Part shown: positions 1-11,925 of the stretch, one piece after another | Layout of the letters: every line of letters starts with the position of its first letter | Position numbering within the stretch: the first letter of the stretch is position 1 | IMG/VR virus record: IMGVR_UViG_3300045988_126893 | Span: 1-11,925 of that record | Source: a virus | Reading direction: 5' to 3' (one strand) | Length of the DNA stretch: 11,925 nucleotides | Notes under the pieces: model-generated | Told to the model about the DNA's origin: nothing | What the model saw: only the letters and a program-made list of their open reading frames with translations | Database searches by the model: none | Program-made: the position numbers and the translations under genes

Positions 1-147
1 CACCTATGAGATTTAACAACTTGTTCACATTTTCCCCAAACGATTTAATATGCTAAAGTGCTAAATCAATAAAGTGGGACCAAACATAATTAGTTAAACA
101 ACAAAACAAAGACATAAAAATATTACACAAACAATACAAAATGTTTA

Positions 148-176
148 TTGCAAAAACCCATTGACAGATGTATAAT
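148..176 (+). promoter_or_regulatory. SigA/sigma70-type promoter inside ITR-L, firing inward
   Basis: -35 TTGCAA (148-153), a 17-nt spacer and -10 TATAAT (171-176), lying 52 nt upstream of the first ATG. Confidence 0.7.
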
Positions 177-181
177 ATTAT

Positions 182-200
182 TGTAATCATTAAGATTACA
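182..200 (+). promoter_or_regulatory. 7-bp inverted repeat at the predicted transcription start. Either an operator or a 5' mRNA stem-loop.
   Basis: TGTAATC (182-188), a 5-nt spacer and GATTACA (194-200), immediately downstream of the -10 hexamer. It is duplicated in ITR-R. Confidence 0.45.
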
Positions 201-228
201 CAACAGATATTTAAGGAGTTGTTACAAT

Positions 229-534
229 ATGAAAATTAACGGCAAGAACATCAAAGGAATAAAAAGAACTGTAGGTAGATACAACAAGATACCAGTTGAC
301 AAACGAACATCATTTAATATCTGGTATGACTGGGTAACTAGCACTGTTATGTTGATTAGAAATGATATTTTTGACCAAAGCAATATGGGAGATGAACTAA
401 TTTGCGTAAACGGGTTTATGTACAGACGTTACGACGATGTTAGCGACTGTATCAACTGTGAATACCCATATCTGGGCGCTGCAAATATATCAATGTCAAT
501 GCTACGCAGTGTTTTATCACAATACCTAGTTTAA
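229..534 (+). CDS. ITR-encoded 101-aa protein, copy L. Function unknown; basic N-terminus and one CxxC pair.
   Basis: AAGGAG at 213-218 lies 10 nt before the ATG at 229. The ORF is intact and a paralogue sits at 11392-11697 with 88 of 101 residues identical. I recognised no family motif. Confidence 0.8.
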   Translation: MKINGKNIKGIKRTVGRYNKIPVDKRTSFNIWYDWVTSTVMLIRNDIFDQSNMGDELICVNGFMYRRYDDVSDCINCEYPYLGAANISMSMLRSVLSQYLV

Positions 535-590
535 ACGTGAAATAGAATAAAAACAATATTAATTTCAGTAATCCTAAGGAGTTGATTAAA

Positions 591-773
591 ATGTACAAGT
601 ACATACTACTATTTAACGGGCGTTCAGCAGAGTTTACCGATTTACAAATCGCACTACACGTTGCGTATTTGTTGGCCGAAGTATTTGACGTGGATATAGT
701 TGAATACACTAACGACGGTACAAACGAGTACGACGAGATAAGCGGCATAACAAGTATGAAATCGAGGAGTTGA
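591..773 (+). CDS. Small acidic early protein (60 aa), function unknown
   Basis: AAGGAG at 576-581 lies 9 nt before the ATG at 591. The track start, TTG at 582, abuts the SD and is unlikely. Asp/Glu clearly outnumber Lys/Arg. The stop is TGA at 771-773. Confidence 0.65.
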   Translation: MYKYILLFNGRSAEFTDLQIALHVAYLLAEVFDVDIVEYTNDGTNEYDEISGITSMKSRS

Positions 774-781
774 GTTCGGGA

Positions 782-1360
782 ATGCCTAAACCAATAATAC
801 CTGAGAAATTTGTGCAAGGTCTATCAGACAAGGCACTAAACGCGCAAATTAAACGTTATTCAAAACGTGCTAATAGCCGCATAGAGCGACTAAAACGTGA
901 GGGACTGTGGAATAATTCCGCAAGCATTCAACGCAACTGGGAGGCAGTAACACACACTGCACCCATCGGCACCAATTCAGGACGTTTCAGTCGTTCAGTA
1001 TCAGGGACCAGAGAAACCCGAGAGGTGCAGTTAAAGCAGTTAATTCGTTTCCTGAACGCAAAAACCACTGTCAAGGACGTTAAAAACGAGATTACAACAT
1101 TCAAAACAAAGATAACCGCCTATACTGGTAACACCCCCAGTGTCGACATCGTCGGCGCAATTAATCGACTAATAGGTCGGTATATGGGCGAATTTAAACG
1201 GTTCGGAATGTCATCAGAACAAGCATACCATATCATCACAGAACTGGGATACGGCAAAGGCGAACAGGATGCCGAAGATAGCATACTGCACGCTATACAA
1301 ACTGCCCAATCGAATGATGATTTTTTCCAAAAGGTTACCGAGAACTATACATATTACTAG
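782..1360 (+). CDS. Candidate terminal (priming) protein, 192 aa
   Basis: It lies immediately upstream of the protein-primed polymerase, as phi29 gene 3 lies next to gene 2. GAGGAG at 764-769 precedes the ATG at 782; the track TTG at 770 has no spacing to the SD. The N-terminal helix KRYSKRANSRIERLKREG is Lys/Arg-rich. The C-terminal part is acidic and ends in YTYY. The call rests on position and composition only. Confidence 0.45.
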   Translation: MPKPIIPEKFVQGLSDKALNAQIKRYSKRANSRIERLKREGLWNNSASIQRNWEAVTHTAPIGTNSGRFSRSVSGTRETREVQLKQLIRFLNAKTTVKDVKNEITTFKTKITAYTGNTPSVDIVGAINRLIGRYMGEFKRFGMSSEQAYHIITELGYGKGEQDAEDSILHAIQTAQSNDDFFQKVTENYTYY

Positions 1361-1378
1361 CAGGCAACGAGGAGAGTT

Positions 1379-3547
1379 ATGGAGTACGTTACAACGTTTG
1401 ATATAAATACATTACCTAACATTGAAACAGTGCGCAAACACAATACCAGCAAATGTGCATATATCAATGCACCATTTGCGTTTGATATTGAAACAACGTC
1501 ATACATAGATAATGACGGCAATAAACGTGCGTTTATGTATGAATTTTCAATGTCGCTGAATGGGGTTCCCGTGTATGGTCGTTACTGGTATGAATTCATG
1601 GGGGTTCTGCGAAAACTGAAACAACGCTATAAATTATCGCGTAAAAAACGCCTAGTAATATATGTTCATAACCTAGCATACGAATTTCAGTTTTTGCAGG
1701 GTCGTTTTCCAGTGTCGGACGTGTTCGCCCGGGTAAATCGTCACCCTATGAAATGTGTGATTGATGACTGTTTTGAATTTAGATGTTCGTATGTTTTGTC
1801 AGGGTTATCCCTAGCAAAAACAGCAGACCAAATAACAATCCACGATATAACAAAATTGACTGGTGACCTAGACTATAAAATAATCAGAACACGCAAAACC
1901 CCCCTAACCGAACAAGAACTAGCATATTGTGAAAATGACGTACAGATTATATACTGGTTCATAAAACAGGAAATGTTACAAAATGGTAACAGTATAGCTA
2001 ATATCCCGTTGACAAAAACGGGGTATGTGCGTAGATACTGTTATGAATACATTTCAACACATACCAATTTTGAACAATACCGAACATTTATCAAACACTG
2101 CGCCCCTACAGAACCAGAATTGTTCATATTAATGCACAAATGTTTTGCAGGTGGATTTACACATGCTAACGTCCTGCACGTTGGCGAAACGTGTGAAAAC
2201 GTGGGTGCTATAGATTTTACTAGCAGTTACCCTGCGCAAATGGTTCGTCACAAATATCCTATGACAAAATTTTACAAAGTGCCCGTAAATAACCGGAAAC
2301 AGTTTGAAACACTGGTGAACGCGAAGGCGTGTTTGATTGAAATCTGTTTAAAAGGGGTTAATGCTAAAACCCCTAACCATATAATTAGTAGTTCAAAATG
2401 CCAGTACGTTGAAAACGGAATATATGACAACGGGCGTATAGTATCAGCAGATAAGGTGTACACCTATATCACAGATGTTGACTATAACGATATTTGTGAA
2501 TTTTATGAAATTGACAAAATTCACGTTGTTCAAATGTGGGTTGCTAATTATGGATATCTGCCTGATGAATTTCTGCAATGCGTTTTGACATTGTTTTCAG
2601 ATAAAACAACATTAAAAGGTGTAAAATGTAAAGAACAGGAATATTTGCTAAAAAAAGGAATGTTAAACAGTGCATACGGAATGAGCGTTACAAACCCCGT
2701 AAACAATGAATGCGAATTTGTGGAAAACGATGATGATATAGGCGGATTTTGGCAAGATGTTGAACAGGATATAAACGGCGCGTTGTTGGATAGCTACATA
2801 GGGAACAATAAACAATTTCTATTATATCAGTGGGGTGTATGGGTGACTGCGTGGGCTAGGCATGAACTGTTCAGGGGTGTTTTGAAAATGGGGATTGACG
2901 TTGTATACTGCGATACTGATAGCATAAAATACCTACACCCCGAAAAATACAAAACGTGGATTGACGATTATAACGAACGTGTATTCAATGATATGTTGAA
3001 ACGCTGTGACGAAATAGGTGTTAGCCGTGATATGGTAAACCCCGTTACAATCAGGGGTGAACATACCCCCCTAGGGGTATTTGACTATGAGAAGACCTAC
3101 AAATATTTCAAAACACTAGGCGCGAAACGTTACGCATTTTCATACAATGGTGATGATTTTAGTATAACTGTTTCAGGATTGAACAAAAAAACGGCAGTGC
3201 CGTATATAATGGAATACTGTGAAAATCATAAAATCAGCCCGTTTGATTTTTTTGATGATAATATGTATATCCCTGCAGTCTATACAGATAGTAACGGCAA
3301 TGTTAAATATCCCACGGGCAAATCAACACTGTCATATAGTAACATAGGTGATGATTTTTCTGACAAAATCACCGACTACCTAGGCGAAACTGATGTTGTT
3401 GACGAAAACAGTTATATTCACATGACAGAACAGGACTATAGTCTCAGCCTAACGGTCGCGTTTTTGGAATATATTTCTAATTCACAATACGTTGACGGGG
3501 CTATGGAATGCCCTAAACCTGATTATCTGAAAATTTTAAAAATATGA
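1379..3547 (+). CDS. Protein-primed family-B DNA polymerase (phi29 gp2-like), 722 aa
   Basis: Exonuclease motifs are FDIET (ExoI), HNLAYEF (ExoII) and YCENDV (ExoIII). Polymerase motifs are IDFTSSYPAQM (A), KKGMLNSAYG (B), YCDTDS (C, nt 2906-2923) and LGAKRY (KxY). Motifs A and C nearly match remembered phi29 DVNSLYPAQM and YCDTDS. GAGGAG lies at 1369-1374. Confidence 0.95.
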   Translation: MEYVTTFDINTLPNIETVRKHNTSKCAYINAPFAFDIETTSYIDNDGNKRAFMYEFSMSLNGVPVYGRYWYEFMGVLRKLKQRYKLSRKKRLVIYVHNLAYEFQFLQGRFPVSDVFARVNRHPMKCVIDDCFEFRCSYVLSGLSLAKTADQITIHDITKLTGDLDYKIIRTRKTPLTEQELAYCENDVQIIYWFIKQEMLQNGNSIANIPLTKTGYVRRYCYEYISTHTNFEQYRTFIKHCAPTEPELFILMHKCFAGGFTHANVLHVGETCENVGAIDFTSSYPAQMVRHKYPMTKFYKVPVNNRKQFETLVNAKACLIEICLKGVNAKTPNHIISSSKCQYVENGIYDNGRIVSADKVYTYITDVDYNDICEFYEIDKIHVVQMWVANYGYLPDEFLQCVLTLFSDKTTLKGVKCKEQEYLLKKGMLNSAYGMSVTNPVNNECEFVENDDDIGGFWQDVEQDINGALLDSYIGNNKQFLLYQWGVWVTAWARHELFRGVLKMGIDVVYCDTDSIKYLHPEKYKTWIDDYNERVFNDMLKRCDEIGVSRDMVNPVTIRGEHTPLGVFDYEKTYKYFKTLGAKRYAFSYNGDDFSITVSGLNKKTAVPYIMEYCENHKISPFDFFDDNMYIPAVYTDSNGNVKYPTGKSTLSYSNIGDDFSDKITDYLGETDVVDENSYIHMTEQDYSLSLTVAFLEYISNSQYVDGAMECPKPDYLKILKI

Positions 3548-3561
3548 AAGGAGTGGTAAAC

Positions 3562-3894
3562 ATGGGTTGTACTGGCAATTACCTAAACGCTAGTGAAATA
3601 TGTGATTACAACACGGCTATGAAACAGTTAGCCGGGGCTGTCATTATACGATTAATCAATGATATGCAACAGAAAAACTATTGCATAAATTATTCCACGG
3701 ATGTAAACTATCGTAAACGTAAATTGTTCTATAGTGCCGTGGAATATCCCCTGCGTTATCCTGAATGGCTGAATTTTTGGCTAGCTACTGCAGATATGGA
3801 TACATATGCAGATGATATAATTGCAATGGCACGTGACAAATTTAAACAGGGGTATATTGAACCCCTGCGGAAAAAAGGAGTAAAGAATGAATAA
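3562..3894 (+). CDS. Hypothetical 110-aa protein between the polymerase and the ATPase
   Basis: AAAGGAG at 3547-3553 lies 8 nt before the ATG at 3562. An alternative ATG at 3544 overlaps the polymerase stop as ATGA. I recognised no catalytic motif. Confidence 0.65.
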   Translation: MGCTGNYLNASEICDYNTAMKQLAGAVIIRLINDMQQKNYCINYSTDVNYRKRKLFYSAVEYPLRYPEWLNFWLATADMDTYADDIIAMARDKFKQGYIEPLRKKGVKNE

Positions 3895-5005
3895 AATAAT
3901 TAACAAAATAATGGGAGCCCCAGTTGATGAGTATTACAGTTTAAAACGAATACTGAAAACTAATGCTACCTATAACATTATTTTCGGTAAACGTTCAAAC
4001 GGCAAAACATTCAGCGTTGTAGAACGGGCGTTAGAACACGGGTGGAAACTAGCATACATCAGGCGGTTCGACGAGGAAATAACTAGAAAAAATCTAAATA
4101 ATTTAGTATGTGCTGACCATGATATTGCGAAACATACCCACGGCCAATGGAATAGCTATTGTTTTCAGTCCAACTGTTTCTATTTTACACTGGTTGAAAA
4201 CGGCAAAGTTATAAAAAAATCGACTGAACCATTTATACATTGTTTCGCGTTGAACACTATGGAAACCACAAAGGGTGCAGATAATGGATATTTTCCTATT
4301 ATTTTGTTTGACGAATTCATAACTAGACGTTTTTATCTGCCTAACGAATTTGTATTATTCCAAAATATCCTATCATCTATCATACGTGACAGGGACGGTA
4401 GTGAAATATATATGTTAGCAAATACAGTCAATCAGTCATGCCCGTATTTTGCTGAAATGGGATTGACAAGAATTGACAAAATGAAACAGGGTGAAATACA
4501 AATAGTTGATTATGGCGACAGCGGTTTGCGCGTTGCCGTTGAATACTGCAACGACACCACAAACACGATGAAAACTGCTAAATATTTTGCGTTCGATAAC
4601 CCACAATTAAAAATGATAACTAACGGAAAATGGGAAATTAAGGGTTACCCACATTGTCCCATTTCTGTTAACCGTGACAACATAGCGTTTGTATTTTTTG
4701 TAATTTTCGAAGAACACATAATCAGGGGAAATATAGTCAATGACAACGGACACGTTTTTGTTATGTTTAATCCACACACCAACACCAACAGAACACCAGC
4801 AGAAAACGATGTAACATATAGTTTGGACGTTTCCCCGTATCCTATGTGGTGTCAATCTATCAACGAAACACCCACGGACGCACATAAAATCATCAGGGAC
4901 CTAATAAACCGCAATAAAATGTATTTTTCTGACAATACCACGGGCGAAATAATACGAAACTGGATAAAACAACAGGCACAAATAAAACAAACGTTTCTAT
5001 CATAA
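3887..5005 (+). CDS. DNA encapsidation (packaging) ATPase, phi29 gp16-like, 372 aa
   Basis: Walker A is GKRSNGKT (nt 3986-4009) and Walker B is IILFDEF. The block ILFDEFITRRFYLPNEFVLFQNILSSIIRDRDGSEIYMLANTVNQSCPYF parallels remembered gp16 IVFDEFIREKDNSNYIPNEVSALLNLMDTVFRNRERVRCICLSNAVSVVNPYF. AAGGAG lies at 3875-3880. Confidence 0.85.
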   Translation: MNKIINKIMGAPVDEYYSLKRILKTNATYNIIFGKRSNGKTFSVVERALEHGWKLAYIRRFDEEITRKNLNNLVCADHDIAKHTHGQWNSYCFQSNCFYFTLVENGKVIKKSTEPFIHCFALNTMETTKGADNGYFPIILFDEFITRRFYLPNEFVLFQNILSSIIRDRDGSEIYMLANTVNQSCPYFAEMGLTRIDKMKQGEIQIVDYGDSGLRVAVEYCNDTTNTMKTAKYFAFDNPQLKMITNGKWEIKGYPHCPISVNRDNIAFVFFVIFEEHIIRGNIVNDNGHVFVMFNPHTNTNRTPAENDVTYSLDVSPYPMWCQSINETPTDAHKIIRDLINRNKMYFSDNTTGEIIRNWIKQQAQIKQTFLS

Positions 5006-5009
5006 TAGT

Positions 5010-5040
5010 AAACCCCTATACCAATACAGTATAGGAGTTT
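5010..5040. terminator. Hairpin in the convergent intergenic gap. Probable bidirectional terminator.
   Basis: The stem is AAAC-c-CCTATAC (5010-5021) paired with GTATAGG-a-GTTT (5029-5040), with a 7-nt loop. It lies 5 nt after the ATPase stop. The flanks are A/T-rich but there is no long T run. Confidence 0.5.
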
Positions 5041-5050
5041 ATAATATTCC

Positions 5051-5084
5051 CGTCACTGGTACACGAATTAATCAGTGCGTGACG
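5051..5084 (-). terminator. Second, weaker hairpin after the stop of the tail gene
   Basis: CGTCAC (5051-5056) pairs with GTGACG (5079-5084); an alternative pairing is CACTG with CAGTG. The loop is long and there is no U tract. Confidence 0.25.
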
Positions 5085-5094
5085 TTGATTCCCA

Positions 5095-7182
5095 TTATAC
5101 AAATACACCGCTAGTCAATAACTGTGACAGCATGGTTTTTTCTGTGTCAGTGCATTTAAACGATATTTCAGGGTTGCTAACTACAGTGAACCCCGTAAAA
5201 TCGGACAGTTTTCCAGTTTGTTCGCACGCATAACCTACCGTTCGCCCATAATTGCTAGGTACGTTTAAAACAGGTCTGTCAATAATGAAATAACAGTGTT
5301 GCGGTTGCCACGTTGCAACAGACGGGGAACTTGAACCTGATTCTTGGTAATTAGTACCAGTTGCAAAACCACTATACAATTTTTCAGCACTGCTAACCAT
5401 ACCGCCAATATTTCCACTAGCAATTGACGTTACACCACCAACAGCACCGCTAACTACATTGCCGATAATTGTACTAGCGTAATTTGCACTGTCTGTTCCC
5501 GTCATTGGAATTGATACACCTACTACACCATTTCTGTAAATAAATGGTATATCGTCTTTAAACACGATTGCCGTTCCTGCACCCGTGGTATAGTCGACTA
5601 TCATTTTTACTGAAATTCTATGCCCCATAAATTCGGCTGTGGAAACAGGCACAACGCCTATATATGGGATATATAACTGTGCTGTTGTGTATGGTTCATA
5701 ATCCAGGAAATTTTTGAATTTAGTAAAAAATGTACATTCACCCAGGTCAATTAAACTGTTTACATTTTCCGTTAATTTAATACCGTTTACCCCCGTGTTT
5801 GTTCTGCCGATTACAATTGATTCAGCATTCGTTGCAGAATTTTTTAACGCTACATTAAACGGAAATAAACGCAAATCAATAATACCGTTCATAGGATTTT
5901 CACCCATTAACGCTAACCCTTTTACAATTTCTTGAAATTTTGTTTCGTCAGCGTTCCATAAGAAATCGGCTAATTGACGAACACTGTTTGATGTTACTGC
6001 GAAACTGCGGTTAAACACGTTAACGTTTGACAGTGTGGGTTTGTTTAGGTCTATTCTATCGGTGTAGTTGTTAGGGTCTGTATTACCTATTCCATTAAAT
6101 GGGTTATTCTGCCAATCGGTGGGGTTATCCCATGTTGTTTGAATTTGTTTTGCATTTTCTGCACCCTCTGAATATTTTCCAGTGATTTTTCCATCATCTG
6201 AAATAATACCACAATATATACCATTTTGGTTTAGATTTTCCTGCTTTGCTAAATTTGTCGAAAATGTGTAATAAGTTCCCATTCTGCTATATAGTTTATG
6301 AATGTTTTCGATACTATAATCAAAAACTGGTAAATATCCCGTATACTCTTTGCTACCAATAGCAAAATATGTTTTATCCCACAAATCTGCATAGCCTAAA
6401 TTTGCATAATAATATGTTTCGGTATTAAAATAACTAGCGTATAGTTCATCACATCCATAAATAAACGTATTTAAAACAGCGTGTGACTGGTCATAATCGC
6501 CAAAATATAACGCACCATAAATATCATAATTATCCACCATAGAATTTTTTGAATATGTGCAAAACGGTATTATATTAAAACCCTGACAGCGTTGTCTGTC
6601 ACCAATCGCCGTTCTAGAATAATATGGTACCGCATATATACCTACAACATTGTATGTATCTTTGTACTGTTTTTCAAACGTATCTACGTCAACATCTAAT
6701 TTATCACCAAATGACGATACGTCGCCCATACCAGAATATTCAAATCTATACGCTACCACTCGAATCAAAAAAAGAAAATCTTTTAACTTATACTCGGTGC
6801 CGAAATAATAGCCTAACCCATCATTCGTATCACTATCATATGCCAGTCTATGAAATGTAGTCTTAGCTGGGGTAGCATATACGGGGCGATTTTGTAATGT
6901 ATCATTAGTTTTTAATCTGCCAAACATAGCACATACACCACTAGGTGTGTTAGTACCGTTTACGAATTCAGATTGATGCGGTTTCCTATACCCACTGCGG
7001 ACAAAATAATCATCAGGGGGATTAAAATCGACGGCATAAAAAATTGATTCGTCAATAGGATTATTTAACTGTAATTTACCATTATCAATTAATTCCTGCA
7101 TCGACTGCGTGGTTTTTATTCCTTTTAGATAGTCTAATGATATAGTTCTATCACTGGAATAAATTTCCTTATTTAATTTCAT
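5095..7182 (-). CDS. Tail knob / distal tube protein, C-terminal portion (phi29 gp9-like core), fused to a lineage-specific N-terminal module of about 380 aa. 695 aa in total.
   Basis: GGAGGG lies 7 nt before the ATG at 7182. Three C-terminal blocks resemble remembered gp9. EPYTTAQLYIPYIG matches MMYPYCVTEITD. The Gly-rich hydrophobic loop IIGNVVSGAVGGVTSIASGNIGGMVSS (about nt 5353-5472) matches IMGMIGGGISAGASAAGGSALGMASS. The tail TDTEKTMLSQLLTSGV matches NNNDLQEIRTIFDNGI. Residues 1-380 have no match I recognise. Confidence 0.6.
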   Translation of the reverse strand: MKLNKEIYSSDRTISLDYLKGIKTTQSMQELIDNGKLQLNNPIDESIFYAVDFNPPDDYFVRSGYRKPHQSEFVNGTNTPSGVCAMFGRLKTNDTLQNRPVYATPAKTTFHRLAYDSDTNDGLGYYFGTEYKLKDFLFLIRVVAYRFEYSGMGDVSSFGDKLDVDVDTFEKQYKDTYNVVGIYAVPYYSRTAIGDRQRCQGFNIIPFCTYSKNSMVDNYDIYGALYFGDYDQSHAVLNTFIYGCDELYASYFNTETYYYANLGYADLWDKTYFAIGSKEYTGYLPVFDYSIENIHKLYSRMGTYYTFSTNLAKQENLNQNGIYCGIISDDGKITGKYSEGAENAKQIQTTWDNPTDWQNNPFNGIGNTDPNNYTDRIDLNKPTLSNVNVFNRSFAVTSNSVRQLADFLWNADETKFQEIVKGLALMGENPMNGIIDLRLFPFNVALKNSATNAESIVIGRTNTGVNGIKLTENVNSLIDLGECTFFTKFKNFLDYEPYTTAQLYIPYIGVVPVSTAEFMGHRISVKMIVDYTTGAGTAIVFKDDIPFIYRNGVVGVSIPMTGTDSANYASTIIGNVVSGAVGGVTSIASGNIGGMVSSAEKLYSGFATGTNYQESGSSSPSVATWQPQHCYFIIDRPVLNVPSNYGRTVGYACEQTGKLSDFTGFTVVSNPEISFKCTDTEKTMLSQLLTSGVFV

Positions 7183-7684
7183 GTGTTAGCCCTCCGTTCT
7201 CTGCTGTTCCTTGATTACTTCCACCTCCTGCCACATTTAGCACAAAGTTGTAACTATTTGCTGTGGCGGTATCTAAATTAAAATCACCTCCGGTAAACTC
7301 AATTACTTTAATTTCCTTATTACCTTTTAATGGTAACATTGTATCGGGAATGTATGTACTGCCTATGTTTTCGTTTCTAGTCACTAGAAACGTGCTGGAT
7401 AGTAGCACGTTTCGGTATGTGTGCAGAACGTCCAGTCTGCAGTGTATCAATATCGTGTTTGCGGTTTCGACTGTTTGACCCGTTACAAAATAGTACCTAT
7501 CAAAAAATGATATGTAGCAGTAGTTAGCGTTGAATGTTTCAGATGTACACCTAACACGTAACGTAGGTGTTACCATTTCAGCACTATCTAACAACTGGCA
7601 CGTGTAATCTATCTGATTAGTCAATGTTTTTGTAATCGTTCGTGGGTCATCTGCCGTGTGATATGTGTTTAGTATAAATGCCAT
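7169..7684 (-). CDS. Tail knob / distal tube protein, N-terminal domain encoded as a separate 171-aa gene
   Basis: AGGGGTGA lies 4 nt before the ATG at 7684. The track start at 7702 has no SD. PTLRVRCTSETFNANYCYISFFDRYYFVTGQTVETANTILIHCRLDVLHTYRNVLLSSTFLVTRNE aligns with remembered gp9 [72 protein letters not shown]. Confidence 0.6.
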   Translation of the reverse strand: MAFILNTYHTADDPRTITKTLTNQIDYTCQLLDSAEMVTPTLRVRCTSETFNANYCYISFFDRYYFVTGQTVETANTILIHCRLDVLHTYRNVLLSSTFLVTRNENIGSTYIPDTMLPLKGNKEIKVIEFTGGDFNLDTATANSYNFVLNVAGGGSNQGTAENGGLTHEIK

Positions 7685-7706
7685 ATTTTCACCCCTATTC
7701 AAATAT

Positions 7707-7734
7707 TAGCAGGGATATTATTATACCCCTGCTA
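7707..7734 (-). terminator. Hairpin directly after the capsid gene. Probable leaky terminator or attenuator.
   Basis: On the minus strand the sequence reads TAGCAGGG, a 12-nt loop, CCCTGCTA (an 8-bp stem), then AUAUUUG. It lies 12 nt after the MCP stop. Confidence 0.45.
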
Positions 7735-7745
7735 TATTATAGATT

Positions 7746-8900
7746 TTATGCCGCGTCATCGATAACAAACACAATGCAGTTTTCTGCCGTATCGTTCATG
7801 TACATAGCATCCCATTTATAATAGAATTTGGTTGTTTCATTGCTAGGGTTATAGAATGATGTTACCCTATAGTTTTCGCAACAAACCATTGCCGCGTCCC
7901 TATCAAACAGAACACCTACAACACCATTCTGGGTTACTGCCGTTTCAGAACCCTCGATAGTGACGTCAATTTTACTAGCCTCAGCAAACGCAACGTTTTC
8001 ATCTGTGCCGGAACCCTGCCACCATGGAACCGTGTCATATGTGCCAACTTTTACCAAATCATCATGAAAAGTGTCCGCCTGCATATTGGTTATCATTGCC
8101 TTGTCAAATTGTGACAACAGTGTTAGGTGCTGATATTCGTACGGGGTAAATGTTACATATGATGTATCATTATACAACATTGACATTTCTGTGATATAAT
8201 CACGATATAGCTGTATCTGTGTAGCCGCATATCTTAGGAAATTTTTATCAGTCAGTGCCTTTTCAGCCGTCAGCGTTGCTTTATATGCTGTGTTGTATTC
8301 TGTCAGCAGATTTACAACGTTATTTTTGCTGTGAATTTTCTGCGCAATCAGGTTATTTACTGTACGTTTTGCCAGTGACGTATTATAGAACGCCATTGCA
8401 GAACGTATACGATTTTCAATGTTTGCAAAAAATGCGTTCATAGTGGCAGGACCTGCAAAACTTGATTTGACCTGCTCATAACCATATGATACCTTGGTTT
8501 CATATGTTATCCTCTTATTCCAGTATTTGGTTGAAACATTTGGCGGTGTAAAAACTGCGAAATCGTCATATTTGGTGCCTGCCACCAGTTTCCATGTATC
8601 GTTCTCTGTAGCCTTTGGCAAATCAACCCTGATTTTTTCCAAAACTGAACCATATTCCCAGTTATCACGGATAATGTCAGGTGCACCGCCCGTGTATTTG
8701 CGGTCAACGTTAATCACCCTGCCGACCTTATCCATAATTTTTTTGACGTAGTTGTCAACGCCCCCGTCAGTGGTCAGAACATTAGTGAACGATCTGCCGA
8801 TATCGACTATGTTTGACAGGTCTTCGTTGACCACAGCACCCTCGCCTATCATTTCCTTGGAAATTTCATTCAGAATGGTTGCTATCTGTGTTACTTTCAT
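7746..8900 (-). CDS. Major capsid protein, phi29 gp8-like HK97 fold without the C-terminal Ig-like domain, 384 aa
   Basis: AGGAG lies 9 nt before the ATG at 8900. The C-terminal block LFDRDAAMVCCENYRVTSFYNPSNETTKFYYKWDAMYMNDTAENCIVFV parallels remembered gp8 [49 protein letters not shown]. The central block also corresponds: MNAFFANIENRIRSA against FESFVSSIINAIYNSA. Confidence 0.8.
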   Translation of the reverse strand: MKVTQIATILNEISKEMIGEGAVVNEDLSNIVDIGRSFTNVLTTDGGVDNYVKKIMDKVGRVINVDRKYTGGAPDIIRDNWEYGSVLEKIRVDLPKATENDTWKLVAGTKYDDFAVFTPPNVSTKYWNKRITYETKVSYGYEQVKSSFAGPATMNAFFANIENRIRSAMAFYNTSLAKRTVNNLIAQKIHSKNNVVNLLTEYNTAYKATLTAEKALTDKNFLRYAATQIQLYRDYITEMSMLYNDTSYVTFTPYEYQHLTLLSQFDKAMITNMQADTFHDDLVKVGTYDTVPWWQGSGTDENVAFAEASKIDVTIEGSETAVTQNGVVGVLFDRDAAMVCCENYRVTSFYNPSNETTKFYYKWDAMYMNDTAENCIVFVIDDAA

Positions 8901-8922
8901 ACTACATTACTCCTTTTTTTGT

Positions 8923-9618
8923 TTAATATATTGACAAACAAATTAGATTTGCTATATCATTTACAAATTGTGATAGGGCTGAAAAATCAGCTATTTCACG
9001 TTCAGATTGTATCATCTGCTGTGACGTGGTTACACCGATGTTGCCACTGCGTTTAAATTCATGTGTGGTTTTTTCAGTTCCCGTTGTGGTTGTTTTACCC
9101 GTTGACGAATTTTCTGTGCTGGTTGTGGTAGTGGTATCTGCAGTACCCTTATTTTGGTTGATAAAATCTGCGGTGTTATCATAGGTTGTTACTGCAGATG
9201 TATTTGTGCTACTGTCTGTGGCGTTTCCGCTAGATGTTCCACTAGCAGTTGTATTTGAAACTAAATCAGGGGTTCGCACGTCCGTTCCGTTTTCGGTCAT
9301 GGAATAGTTTTCTATGGGGTTATATTCCAGTTTTTCCGTAGCTAACAGTTTATTGTATTTGGTCTGATAGGTACGGGCGAATATAATGCAATAGTTAGTC
9401 AGCTGTGCTATTGCGTTAGTAGTTTCCTGCATGGTTGTGGGGTATTTTTTAAACACCAATCGTTCAGCATTATACAGTTGAAATAAATCAAATATTTCTG
9501 CAGGGGTTTCGCTGAAATTAATGAACGTTTTTACACCGCTGAAAATATTTTTGAATGTTGATATATTTTCATTCCAGTAATCAACAGTCGCAAACCCGTA
9601 GTTATCTATTTCACACAT
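8923..9618 (-). CDS. Virion structural protein, candidate lower collar (head-tail tube connector), 231 aa with a Thr/Ser-rich central segment
   Basis: AAGGGGTGA lies 5 nt before the ATG at 9618. The track start at 9660 has no SD. The gene sits between the portal and MCP genes. The N-terminal part is helical-looking. The polar Thr/Ser-rich segment of about 75 aa (nt 9061-9291) is bracketed by YNPIENY and GNIGVTTSQQMI, which fits a long beta-hairpin tube. The assignment is inferential; a scaffold role is not excluded. Confidence 0.4.
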   Translation of the reverse strand: MCEIDNYGFATVDYWNENISTFKNIFSGVKTFINFSETPAEIFDLFQLYNAERLVFKKYPTTMQETTNAIAQLTNYCIIFARTYQTKYNKLLATEKLEYNPIENYSMTENGTDVRTPDLVSNTTASGTSSGNATDSSTNTSAVTTYDNTADFINQNKGTADTTTTTSTENSSTGKTTTTGTEKTTHEFKRSGNIGVTTSQQMIQSEREIADFSALSQFVNDIANLICLSIY

Positions 9619-9799
9619 TGCGGTCACCCCTTGCGGACTGTGTTCCAAAATAGAACGCAATGACTGTGGTATAGATGTTCAGCAGTTCATTCCCCGTTAT
9701 TCTGCCGTTCATTGTTATCACCATTACTGTTATCGTCAGCAGTAGCGTTACTATCGATTTCACTGTTATCAGTTTCACCAATTTGTCTTTGGTTGTCAT
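9611..9799 (-). CDS. 62-aa protein with two predicted TM segments (holin-like), overprinted on the portal 3' end
   Basis: AAAGGGGGG lies 7 nt before the ATG at 9799. Hydrophobic segments are IVTLLLTITVMVITM and LLNIYTTVIAFYFG, and the C-terminus is charged. It overlaps the portal by 113 nt in another frame and the next gene by 8 nt (ATGTGTGA). Confidence 0.4.
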   Translation of the reverse strand: MTTKDKLVKLITVKSIVTLLLTITVMVITMNGRITGNELLNIYTTVIAFYFGTQSARGDRNV

Positions 9800-10679
9800 T
9801 ATTTAGCCCCCCTTTCCATTCTTTTGAAAAATCAACCGATATATTTGTGTTGAACATTGTGTTGATTTTTTTAACTGATTCGCGCAGGTTGTTCAGCATA
9901 TCAATAACGTTGATTATCAAACATTCATCATTAACGGCTATTTCTTCGCCGCTGACGCGTTCGCGTTTCATGTTATAGTTTGCATTTACACCAATTGAAT
10001 GATAGAATTGTGCCAAAATATACTGGTTCAGTTCGACCAGTTCTTTAATGTACTGGGAACCGCCTGCAGTGCTTTCAATCATGGGGTTGATTTTTAACGC
10101 ATTGATTAAATCATTTAAAACAACCTCATAGGGGTCCCCATCATACATTCGTTGTATTGCGTTTTCGGCAGATATCTTCTGCGCCTGATTACCTGCAGTT
10201 ACTAGGGCGGTTATACGTGTATTGCGTTGCGCTATGTTTATTGATGAAATGTTATCAGCTAACAGTTGCGCAGTTGTGGATATTAACCCGAACAAACCGC
10301 CCGTTTCACCATTACTACATATTTTGTCAGTATCGGTTAGATACATTAAAACACCCGTTTTGTCTATATCTACTATTTTACTGCCTAGAATTGGATTTGC
10401 TATAATGAATTGTGACGGGTAGTAATAAACGTTAGGTTCGCCACCATAATTGCCGTTTAGTGCATACAGTTTCGAATTAAAATCAGTCCATATAACACGA
10501 CCCTGCGTAATTAGTGTTATTGCTAAAAAATTTTCGTCAACTGTTTCAGGTAGGTTCTCCCACGTGAACATATTTGTTACACGATTTAACAATGTTTTCA
10601 CATAGTAGTTATACATTGATTTTACCTTGTTGACCTTAACGCATTCAGGTAACCATTCCCGTGACTTGTCTTTGCTCAT
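9687..10679 (-). CDS. Portal / upper collar connector protein, phi29 gp10-like, 330 aa
   Basis: AAAGGGGTGA precedes the ATG at 10679. FTWENLPETVDENFLAITLITQG matches remembered gp10 [23 protein letters not shown]. Size is similar, and the N-terminus is basic. The C-terminal tail is Asn/Asp-rich and looks disordered. Confidence 0.85.
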   Translation of the reverse strand: MSKDKSREWLPECVKVNKVKSMYNYYVKTLLNRVTNMFTWENLPETVDENFLAITLITQGRVIWTDFNSKLYALNGNYGGEPNVYYYPSQFIIANPILGSKIVDIDKTGVLMYLTDTDKICSNGETGGLFGLISTTAQLLADNISSINIAQRNTRITALVTAGNQAQKISAENAIQRMYDGDPYEVVLNDLINALKINPMIESTAGGSQYIKELVELNQYILAQFYHSIGVNANYNMKRERVSGEEIAVNDECLIINVIDMLNNLRESVKKINTMFNTNISVDFSKEWKGGLNNDNQRQIGETDNSEIDSNATADDNSNGDNNERQNNGE

Positions 10680-10705
10680 TTTCTCACCCCTTTGTCTATC
10701 GACAG

Positions 10706-10732
10706 AACGTGGTAACTTTGTGTTACCACGTT
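10706..10732 (-). promoter_or_regulatory. Perfect 11-bp-stem hairpin or palindrome between the SSB and portal genes
   Basis: AACGTGGTAAC (10706-10716), a 5-nt loop and GTTACCACGTT (10722-10732). No U tract follows on either strand. Confidence 0.6.
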
Positions 10733-10746
10733 ACAGCCGATTGAAT

Positions 10747-11085
10747 TTACTGTATCTGTAGTGAATAGAATTCGCCGTTTTTAGATTTTCCTTTTACAAA
10801 TCTTACCTTTACTTCTTCGCCTGCGTTCAGACACTCGCTGAGAATATCTGCCAATTCGTCCATGTGGTCAATGCAAACCTTTGACGCGAACCCAAAAACG
10901 CCGACATCTGTTGCAATATATCCTATATCACATGGGGTCTGATTCCTATCCAAACCGCCATTTTCTACTACTGCGCATCCTGAAACAGTGTGCCACTCTG
11001 CCGCCTCTGCTGTTTTGATTGAAATACTACCGCTCTTTGCATTAAAAATATCCTTCTTGTTCATGTTGACATTAAAACCGTTCAT
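10747..11085 (-). CDS. Single-stranded DNA-binding protein, phi29 gp5-like, 112 aa
   Basis: AGAGGT lies 8 nt before the ATG at 11085. The C-terminus LADILSECLNAGEEVKVRFVKGKSKNGEFYSLQIQ matches remembered p5 LIDLVTRHKLETFKVKVVQGTSSKGNVFFSLQLSL. The N-terminal IFNAKSGS matches IFNAQTGG. Confidence 0.55.
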   Translation of the reverse strand: MNGFNVNMNKKDIFNAKSGSISIKTAEAAEWHTVSGCAVVENGGLDRNQTPCDIGYIATDVGVFGFASKVCIDHMDELADILSECLNAGEEVKVRFVKGKSKNGEFYSLQIQ

Positions 11086-11354
11086 TTTAATTTACCTCTT
11101 TCTGTTAAAATTTTGTAAATATTTGTCATACATTACAGGGTCAGTGCCAGCTCTTAATTTACTATAATAGGGGTCTGTCTATGCCTGCCTTGTATACACT
11201 CACTTAACCGCCATGTGTGTAAATTATCGTGCGTATGTAAAATCATACCTACAATTTTTCAATATTATATTATAATATTGGCGGTTTGGAATAGGGCTGA
11301 TTATTTATTCACGTCAACCCTGCGGACCGTGTGAAATCTATTAAATGTGGTTAC
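11086..11354 (-). ncRNA. Long non-coding leader, or a candidate structured RNA (pRNA-like), transcribed from the 11361-11389 promoter
   Basis: This is the largest non-coding stretch in the genome and has no SD-preceded ORF. It has a start-site hairpin (11342-11361) and a second hairpin at 11308-11335. An 8-bp long-range complement pairs 11206-11213 with 11279-11286. There is a 19-nt AT palindrome at 11261-11279. An AU-rich hairpin at 11114-11137 is followed by AAAAUUUU. RNA identity is hypothetical. Confidence 0.3.
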
Positions 11355-11361
11355 ACATTTA
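11342..11361 (-). promoter_or_regulatory. Inverted repeat at the predicted start site of the right-arm promoter
   Basis: AAATGTG (11343-11349) pairs with CACATTT (11354-11360) across a 4-nt loop, and one flanking T-A pair extends the stem. Confidence 0.4.
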
Positions 11362-11389
11362 GTATAACACATAAATAGTGAATTGTCAA
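11361..11389 (-). promoter_or_regulatory. Near-consensus SigA promoter with an extended -10, heading the right arm
   Basis: The minus strand reads TTGACA (11389-11384), a 17-nt spacer ending in TGt, then TATACT (11366-11361). It starts 2 nt after the stop of the ITR-R gene. Confidence 0.75.
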
Positions 11390-11391
11390 TG

Positions 11392-11697
11392 TTAAACTAT
11401 GTATTGTGATAAAACACTGCGTAGCATTGACATTGATATATTTGCATTGCCTAGATATGGGTATTCACAGTTGATACAGTCGCTAACATCATCGTAACGT
11501 CTGAACGTTATCCCGATATCGCAAAATATTTCATCTCCCATATTGCTTTGGGCAAACATATCATTTCTAATCAACATAACAGTGCTAGTTACGCAGTCAT
11601 ACCAAATATTAAATGATGTTCGTTTGTCAACTGGTATCTTGTTGTATCTACCTACAGTTTTTTTTATTCCTTTGATGTTCTTGCCGTTAATTTTCAT
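11392..11697 (-). CDS. ITR-encoded 101-aa protein, copy R (diverged paralogue of 229-534)
   Basis: It mirrors copy L exactly in position, with an identical SD and 5' region. It differs by 13 amino acids and 3 synonymous changes, and the ORF is intact. Confidence 0.8.
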   Translation of the reverse strand: MKINGKNIKGIKKTVGRYNKIPVDKRTSFNIWYDCVTSTVMLIRNDMFAQSNMGDEIFCDIGITFRRYDDVSDCINCEYPYLGNANISMSMLRSVLSQYIV

Positions 11698-11725
11698 ATT
11701 GTAACAACTCCTTAAATATCTGTTG

Positions 11726-11744
11726 TGTAATCTTAATGATTACA
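11726..11744 (-). promoter_or_regulatory. Mirror copy of the 7-bp inverted repeat at the ITR promoter start site
   Basis: Reverse complement of 182-200. Confidence 0.45.
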
Positions 11745-11749
11745 ATAAT

Positions 11750-11778
11750 ATTATACATCTGTCAATGGGTTTTTGCAA
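11750..11778 (-). promoter_or_regulatory. SigA-type promoter inside ITR-R, firing inward (mirror of 148-176)
   Basis: The sequence is identical to the left promoter because it lies in the perfect part of the ITR. Confidence 0.7.
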
Positions 11779-11925
11779 TAAACATTTTGTATTGTTTGTG
11801 TAATATTTTTATGTCTTTGTTTTGTTGTTTAACTAATTATGTTTGGTCCCACTTTATTGATTTAGCACTTTAGCATATTAAATCGTTTGGGGAAAATGTG
11901 AACAAGTTGTTAAATCTCATAGGTG

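Follow-up and report, generated by a model that had tools for sequence, protein, structure and literature searches.

Bacteriophage phi29 (Salasmaviridae) has a genome of 19,282 bp with inverted terminal repeats (ITRs) of 6 bp. It encodes a protein-primed DNA polymerase (PolB), the packaging ATPase gp16, the portal gp10, a gp8-type major capsid protein (MCP), gp9 with an N-terminal tail-tube domain, the collar protein gp11 and the single-stranded DNA-binding protein (SSB) gp5. Smaller phi29-related phages of 11-14 kb are already a recognised group (2024 review; PMC11476376). Cultured members form the Astrithrvirus group, which comprises the Salmonella phages astrithr, Astrid and assan, Acinetobacter phage Phanie, Pectobacterium DU_PP_III, Shigella vB_SHGBLB0004, Vibrio K58 g2 and Enterobacter Entb_47. 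Their genomes of 10.4-11.9 kb have ITRs, and the gene for a protein-primed PolB follows directly on one that resembles a terminal protein (TP) gene. They further encode an ATPase of the gp16 type, a portal of the gp10 type, an MCP of the phi29 type and a tail knob in two pieces, with a small gene for the N-terminal and a large one for the C-terminal part. All these features recur in the IMG/VR virus record IMGVR_UViG_3300045988_126893, analysed here over its full length of 11,925 nucleotides (the window). The window is very probably the near-complete linear double-stranded DNA genome of an uncultivated, lytic-type tailed phage of the human gut, from a lineage of 11-13.5 kb phi29-related phages.

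The four core genes scored above the Pfam gathering cut-offs, and a PHROGs scan agreed. PolB (1379..3547, plus strand) matched DNA_pol_B_2 (PF03175, E 3.9e-9; 36.4 bits versus a cut-off of 25.8) and phrog_1907 (E 1.3e-59). Its sequence contains what we take to be the motifs Exo I (DIETT), Exo III (YCENDV), A (DFTSSYP), B (KKGMLNSAYG) and C (YCDTDS). The DNA packaging ATPase of the gp16 type (3887..5005, plus strand, 372 aa) matched Podovirus_Gp16 (PF05894, E 1.9e-10) and phrog_2150 (E 6.8e-26), with presumed Walker A (GKRSNGKT) and Walker B (ILFDEF) motifs. No small terminase or other terminase-like match was obtained in the Pfam and PHROGs scans of the window. The phi29-type MCP (7746..8900, minus strand, 384 aa) covered the whole Phi29_MCP profile (PF25622, positions 1-323, E 3.9e-44). 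The gp10-type portal, or upper collar protein (9687..10679, minus strand, 330 aa), matched Phage_connector (PF05352, E 2.2e-18) and phrog_2038 (E 3.5e-29). An earlier note on this DNA had named the same four functions, which are thereby confirmed.

The protein encoded directly upstream of PolB (782..1360, plus strand, 192 aa) is, from its position only, inferred to be the TP. A profile of its family matches gp02 of Astrithrvirus and gp2 of Phanie, and the family adjoins PolB upstream in every clade, Astrithrvirus included. The AlphaFold2 (AF2) model is all-helical, with a predicted local distance difference test score (pLDDT) of 87. Fold searches retrieved only uncharacterised proteins, from uncultured podoviruses and from one tectivirus, and sequence and profile searches of the PDB gave nothing meaningful.

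Both window edges coincide with the ends of an inverted repeat, as the earlier note had stated. The left (1..534) and right (11392..11925) arms are 534 bp long and 96% complementary; the outer 265 nt are identical between them. The outer 228 nt are non-coding. The inner part consists of a 101-aa open reading frame (ORF), the stop codon of which sets the inner limit of the repeat, and all 19 mismatches between the arms fall within this ORF. Inward-facing sigma-70-like promoters were located in the left arm at 148-176 and 161-190. The repeat families listed for the window include no direct terminal repeat.

The genome has been assembled repeatedly. A human-gut contig from ENA (L004; ERZ913277 k127_77971, run ERR209823) matches the window at 99.99% identity over 11,839 nt, with 86 nt missing on one side. 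A JGI contig (L220; UMHL01042805.1) represents a strain of about 98% identity with both copies of the ITR gene. These two further assemblies, each of about 12 kb, reproduce both diverged copies. Contigs with an identical MCP belonged in seven of seven cases read to the 10-20 kb length class, and the 52 related contigs that came from assemblies of bacteria or archaea were all stand-alone and at most 13.8 kb long. The same holds for relatives in IMG/VR or mis-binned into metagenome-assembled genomes (MAGs) of many phyla, which were always stand-alone contigs of about 11-13.8 kb; among the relatives examined, none lay inside a larger or bacterial contig. Since the MAG bins with relatives are spread over many unrelated phyla, they were not used to infer a host. 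Strong Shine-Dalgarno sites and promoters of the sigma-70-like type speak against Bacteroidota as hosts. In L020, a scaffold of 16.2 kb from a phage of the sister clade described below, the phage part is preceded by genes for an FtsH-like AAA/Peptidase_M41 protein and a RepB-like regulator (L020:1-3700). This extra region is probably a scaffolding join, since the same phage measures 12.5 kb in another assembly.

Several observations weigh against a complete genome of the phi29 type. The window begins with CACC and shows no short terminal reiteration. Sliding-back initiation, as in phi29 and PRD1, requires such a reiteration. Two close relatives, L005 and L006, extend 5 nt (ATAGG) and 3 nt (AGG) beyond the equivalent of window base 1; the window therefore probably lacks a few terminal bases, and the true ends would lie slightly further out. 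Both ends are equally truncated, as happens when an assembler collapses a shared path, and hence do not prove physical termini. The candidate TP has neither sequence nor fold similarity to phi29 gp3 (hhalign, fold search), so that only its conserved position upstream of PolB speaks for the terminal protein suspected in the earlier note. A large tail protein (orf695) gave only a non-significant C-terminal match to phi29 gp9 in hhalign. Scans of the window against Pfam, PHROGs and NCBIfam found no endolysin. The prohead RNA (pRNA), which is known only from phi29 and its Bacillus relatives, was not matched by an Rfam scan up to E = 10, which returned four chance-level matches elsewhere in the window. 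The complete, ITR-bounded, small phi29-like podophage with protein-primed replication that the earlier note had described is thus upheld by the ITRs, the domains and the two further assemblies, except that a few terminal bases are probably missing.

The sister clade consists of uncultivated 12-13.5 kb gut phages (e.g. L017, ENA ERZ917481 k127_24500; L142-L163 in IMG/VR). The first bases of two sister-clade contigs, directly before the end, read TCCGATCT, which we take to be an Illumina adapter remnant. Its location directly at the contig end points to a physical DNA end in those two contigs. AAAGTA, the phi29 terminal repeat, stands at the start of some contigs of this clade. The starts of L142 (1-24), L161 (1-24), L144 and L147 read AAAGTACCCC.

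The 14 ORFs of the window, both ITR copies counted, cover about 93% of its length, in agreement with the approximately 14 genes in 11.9 kb, against roughly 19 kb for phi29, of the earlier note. They are arranged in two arms, with plus-strand genes at 229-5005 and minus-strand genes at 5095-11697, which converge on an intergenic gap of 89 nt (5006..5094). A hairpin in this gap (5015-5035) probably serves both arms as a transcription stop. In the proposed life cycle, PolB would prime on the 192-aa TP at both ends, and replication of the genome would proceed by strand displacement, with the SSB covering the strand that is set free. An inward-facing promoter in each ITR would drive the 101-aa early gene. 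The left arm would next express TP, PolB and ATPase. In the right arm, a second strong promoter would produce a structured leader, followed by the SSB gene and then the portal, collar, capsid and tail genes. Transcription of the two arms would meet at the hairpin.

An artefact of assembly or amplification, i.e. a chimeric fold-back that yields an inverted repeat on a contig other than a unit-length genome, is highly improbable. The stop of both ends at the same repeat position, as if the assembler had collapsed the repeat, and the apparent absence of the last few nucleotides would fit such an origin. Against it, the genome and both diverged ITR gene copies occur in two assemblies from other records, ITRs are present in cultured relatives (18-171 bp) and in sister-clade contigs (360-440 bp), and the inner end of the repeat coincides exactly with a gene boundary. 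Linear plasmids can also possess a protein-primed PolB and ITRs. Phi29-like phage-plasmids are on record as well (PMC11476376), and a linear plasmid, a phage-plasmid or an excised prophage would account for the same combination of polymerase and termini. Such an element is equally hard to reconcile with the full virion module encoded in the window, and we give it very little credence: integrase, repressor and partition genes were not found in any library scanned (Pfam, PHROGs, NCBIfam), and no relative is embedded in a bacterial contig.

A dependent life style is somewhat less remote, but still unlikely. The window would then be the same type of genome in a non-autonomous phage, which requires a co-infecting helper phage, as Phanie does, and perhaps also for lysis after the loss of its own endolysin. 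Phanie belongs to the closest cultured relatives (MCP 40.7% identical) and has the same split knob. Its particles become infectious only after binding to the tail of a helper myophage, and this dependence has been suggested as possibly general for the group (PMC11476376). The window and its relatives L005, L006 and L008 lack the CHAP lysin of L013, L015 and L017, with no remnant in the window, and the N-terminal half of orf695 can be exchanged as a cassette. On the other side, Salmonella and Shigella relatives have been deposited as ordinary host isolates, and their records mark no helper. That a lysin can no longer be recognised is purely negative evidence, the holin-like gene has been kept, and no helper sequence has been linked to these contigs. 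The preferred reading thus remains the near-complete genome of a lytic-type tailed phage.

Comparison with described phages places the window in a known group. The features of the broad phi29-related group that are present are protein-primed PolB, phi29-type MCP, gp10 portal, gp16 ATPase, ITRs as well as the N-terminal portion of a gp9-type knob. The gp11-like collar motif and the gp5-like SSB are further traits in common with phi29. Library scans recognised no homologue of gp3, gp4, gp6, gp7, gp8.5, gp12, gp13 or gp15. A nucleotide search (megablast) against 50,697 GenBank phage records gave no match. The best protein matches, at 36-43% identity for MCP and PolB, were to the Astrithrvirus group; for Astrithrvirus astrithr itself the values are 38.9% (MCP) and 40.4% (PolB). 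The genus criterion of the International Committee on Taxonomy of Viruses is a nucleotide similarity of about 70% or more over the genome. With no megablast match, a structural block on the opposite strand and no endolysin found, the window does not fit the genus Astrithrvirus. It represents a new, probably genus-level member of an already known group of phages.

The earlier note had placed the genome near the lower size limit of tailed phages and expected novelty. This part was not borne out. Cultured relatives with the same gene set measure 10,390-11,885 bp, related MCP clusters number more than 7,000, many of them on contigs of 12-13 kb (11-13.5 kb overall), and the group has been described before; therefore the window is not near a new size limit, and it does not move the lower limit of tailed phages. 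Its value is that of a reference, clearly delimited and reproducibly assembled, for one sub-clade of the very abundant phi29-related gut phages of 11-13.5 kb. It further shows how minimal genomes of this kind change, by inversion of a block, by growth of the ITR with duplication of an early gene, and by exchange of SSB and tail cassettes between clades that must share hosts.

The convergent layout, noted earlier as a departure from phi29, is real. In phi29 the arms diverge, with the replication genes on the minus strand at the left end and the late genes on the plus strand, whereas those of the window converge. The Astrithrvirus group has all genes in the order TP-PolB-ATPase-portal-MCP-tail-endolysin on one strand. 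The sister clade (L017, L021) likewise has its genes colinear on one strand, but there the structural genes precede TP-PolB-ATPase. The convergent order is common to the window, L005, L006, L008, L013 and L015, a small sub-clade. The difference from the sister clade is an inversion of the TP-PolB-ATPase block, which now lies downstream of a terminal promoter.

The ITRs have changed as well. Those of the Astrithrvirus group (18-171 bp) contain no gene, unlike the 534-bp ITR of the window. L005 (IMGVR_UViG_3300045988_152267), which is 86% identical and likewise convergent in layout, differs in having an ITR of at least 243 nt that stops at the start codon of its single copy of the 101-aa gene, and its genome gave no tblastn match to the SSB of the window at E <= 0.01. 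The ITR of the window, which includes a second copy, has evidently grown so as to duplicate the 101-aa early gene. Copy L (229..534, plus strand) and copy R (11392..11697, minus strand) differ at 16 codons, 13 of them non-synonymous and three synonymous, and seven of the differing codons lie within codons 57-65. L004 shows the same difference, and so does L220 where compared (codon 35). This pattern suggests diversifying selection or a recombined tract, with only the termini being homogenised. The 101-aa protein had no match in Pfam, PHROGs or NCBIfam. An exhaustive search yielded four clusters of small homologues (94-106 aa), and the family appears as an orphan limited to this phage group. 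Two long repetitive proteins, which matched via a short Cys motif, were treated as spurious.

Exchange of cassettes is indicated in the right arm. The sister clade contains all gene families of the window, including the ITR-borne early gene, a 62-aa membrane protein, the gp5-like SSB and the tail proteins, and likewise has long ITRs. Its tail cassette and SSB are 82-91% identical to those of the window, in contrast to the MCP at about 55%; it also differs by a CHAP lysin. One sister-clade MCP carries the record name 'MAG TPA: major capsid protein [Caudoviricetes sp.]'. On the DNA level, the tail genes at 5093-7549 share 82-88% identity with the sister clade, the remaining genome 65-77% or unalignable. 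The SSB and tail cassettes were exchanged with the sister clade. In L220 (4636-6714), a different N-terminal tail cassette is present, and the tail protein is 58% identical overall. The divergence of the N-terminal tail half between L220 and the window looks like the exchange of a receptor-binding cassette.

The gp5-like SSB of the window (orf112; 10747..11085, minus strand, 112 aa) was aligned by hhalign to phi29 gp5 end to end over 98 columns (E 0.0097). Its AF2 model (pLDDT 80) is rich in beta structure, has two helices and resembles the oligonucleotide/oligosaccharide-binding (OB) fold. The best PDB matches of the model are weak and go to SSB-type OB folds (PrgE, E 0.18; Pf3 SSB; RPA). PF17427 was not matched by orf112. 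This family holds the atypical SSB group of phi29 and Bam35, which has an OB-like fold and about 100 core residues (PMC8276246). The nearest relatives carry a canonical SSB (PF00436) in the same slot (L006:11343-11720, L008:10584-10961, L013:985-1353). Because of the hhalign result, the OB-like model and the SSB slot in relatives, the gp5-like call, made already in the earlier note, is supported, although PF17427 itself gave no match. Orf112 shares 84-89% identity with proteins of the sister clade, against only about 55% for the MCP. The window and its closest relatives differ by a non-orthologous SSB swap at one locus.

A conserved structured RNA leader (11125..11337, minus strand) lies in the gap of 306 nt that separates the right ITR from orf112. 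It is preceded by the strongest promoter match of the window (TTGACA-17-TATACT, 11389-11361). The leader is kept in five relatives, i.e. six genomes with the window, even where the downstream SSB gene differs. In a covariance model with two helices (R1), 96% of cells are paired, and compensatory changes occur in 8 of 19 pairs versus 0-2 in slid controls. A hand-curated table of six helices has 98% of cells paired and compensatory changes at 23 of 33 positions, and single-sequence folds recover most of these helices; the table overstates certainty, because it was fitted by eye to five distinct sequences. No Rfam family matched the leader, and R1 detected it neither in Astrithrvirus nor in the sister clade. 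A separate conserved non-coding leader of 170 nt, with a long hairpin, is present in the sister clade upstream of the gp5-like SSB gene (L145:2170-2340, L149:2178-2350 and equivalents); it shows too little variation for a covariation test. A GUGAGCA motif is common to both kinds of leader. A first DNA pattern for the RNA motif was discarded as too loose, with nearly all matches in IMG/VR due to chance; a stricter pattern found one strain in JGI metagenomes.

Most likely, the RNA is a regulatory leader, translational or by antitermination, for the operon from the SSB to the structural genes. That the transcript of about 210 nt is an analogue of the packaging RNA, bridging the gp16-type ATPase to the gp10-type portal as pRNA does in phi29, is an unlikely, though interesting, possibility. 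If true, RNA-dependent DNA packaging would reach from Bacillus phages to mini-phages of the gut.

The tail knob claimed in the earlier note is divided between two genes. A tail-tube protein (orf177; 7169..7684, minus strand, 171 aa) is homologous to the N-terminal part of phi29 gp9 (profile versus PDB 5fb4, E 5.8e-4; hhalign, E 2.7e-4; profile hidden Markov model versus phi29 gp9, E 2.1e-10). The large tail protein orf695 (5095..7182, minus strand, 695 aa), with its swappable N-terminal half, is similar in its C-terminal part to gp10 of Phanie (E 8e-6). Because orf177 matches the N-terminal part of gp9 and the C-terminal part of orf695 the Phanie protein, the gp9-type knob is regarded as split between the two genes, with a C-terminal link to gp9 itself that falls short of significance. 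A split tail knob has been described for this phage group (PMC11476376). Single-sequence and profile searches of the PDB with orf695 and orf245 returned nothing meaningful. A lower-collar-like protein (8923..9618, minus strand, 231 aa) matched phi29 gp11 in hhalign (E 0.0011, positions 74-107), and its gene comes after the portal gene, as that of gp11 does in phi29.

A holin-like membrane protein of 62 aa with two hydrophobic segments (9611..9799, minus strand; phrog_13256, E 3.9e-19) is conserved across clades. Its gene overlaps the 3' end of the portal ORF by 113 nt in a different frame, where the C-terminal tail of the portal is of low complexity and rich in N, D and E. The overlap suggests overprinting. 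A search with CHAP and amidase proteins of relatives found no lysin remnants in the window. An endolysin is present in L013, L015, L017 and Astrithrvirus; L005, L006 and L008 are, like the window, without a CHAP lysin. The CHAP lysin gene of relatives is located between the portal and SSB genes.

The plus strand also encodes a small early gene product of 60 aa (591..773, an ORF call) and a 110-aa protein (3562..3894), the sister-clade homologue of which is encoded directly upstream of the MCP gene. An NCBIfam scan of all unassigned window proteins gave no match, and no tRNAs were found in the window. L006 has an extra gene upstream of its TP gene (L006:760-1428), absent from the window. The predicted protein of 222 aa contains a PPC motif (IIAHPPCTRLCNSG), which we take to be typical of cytosine-5 DNA methyltransferases.

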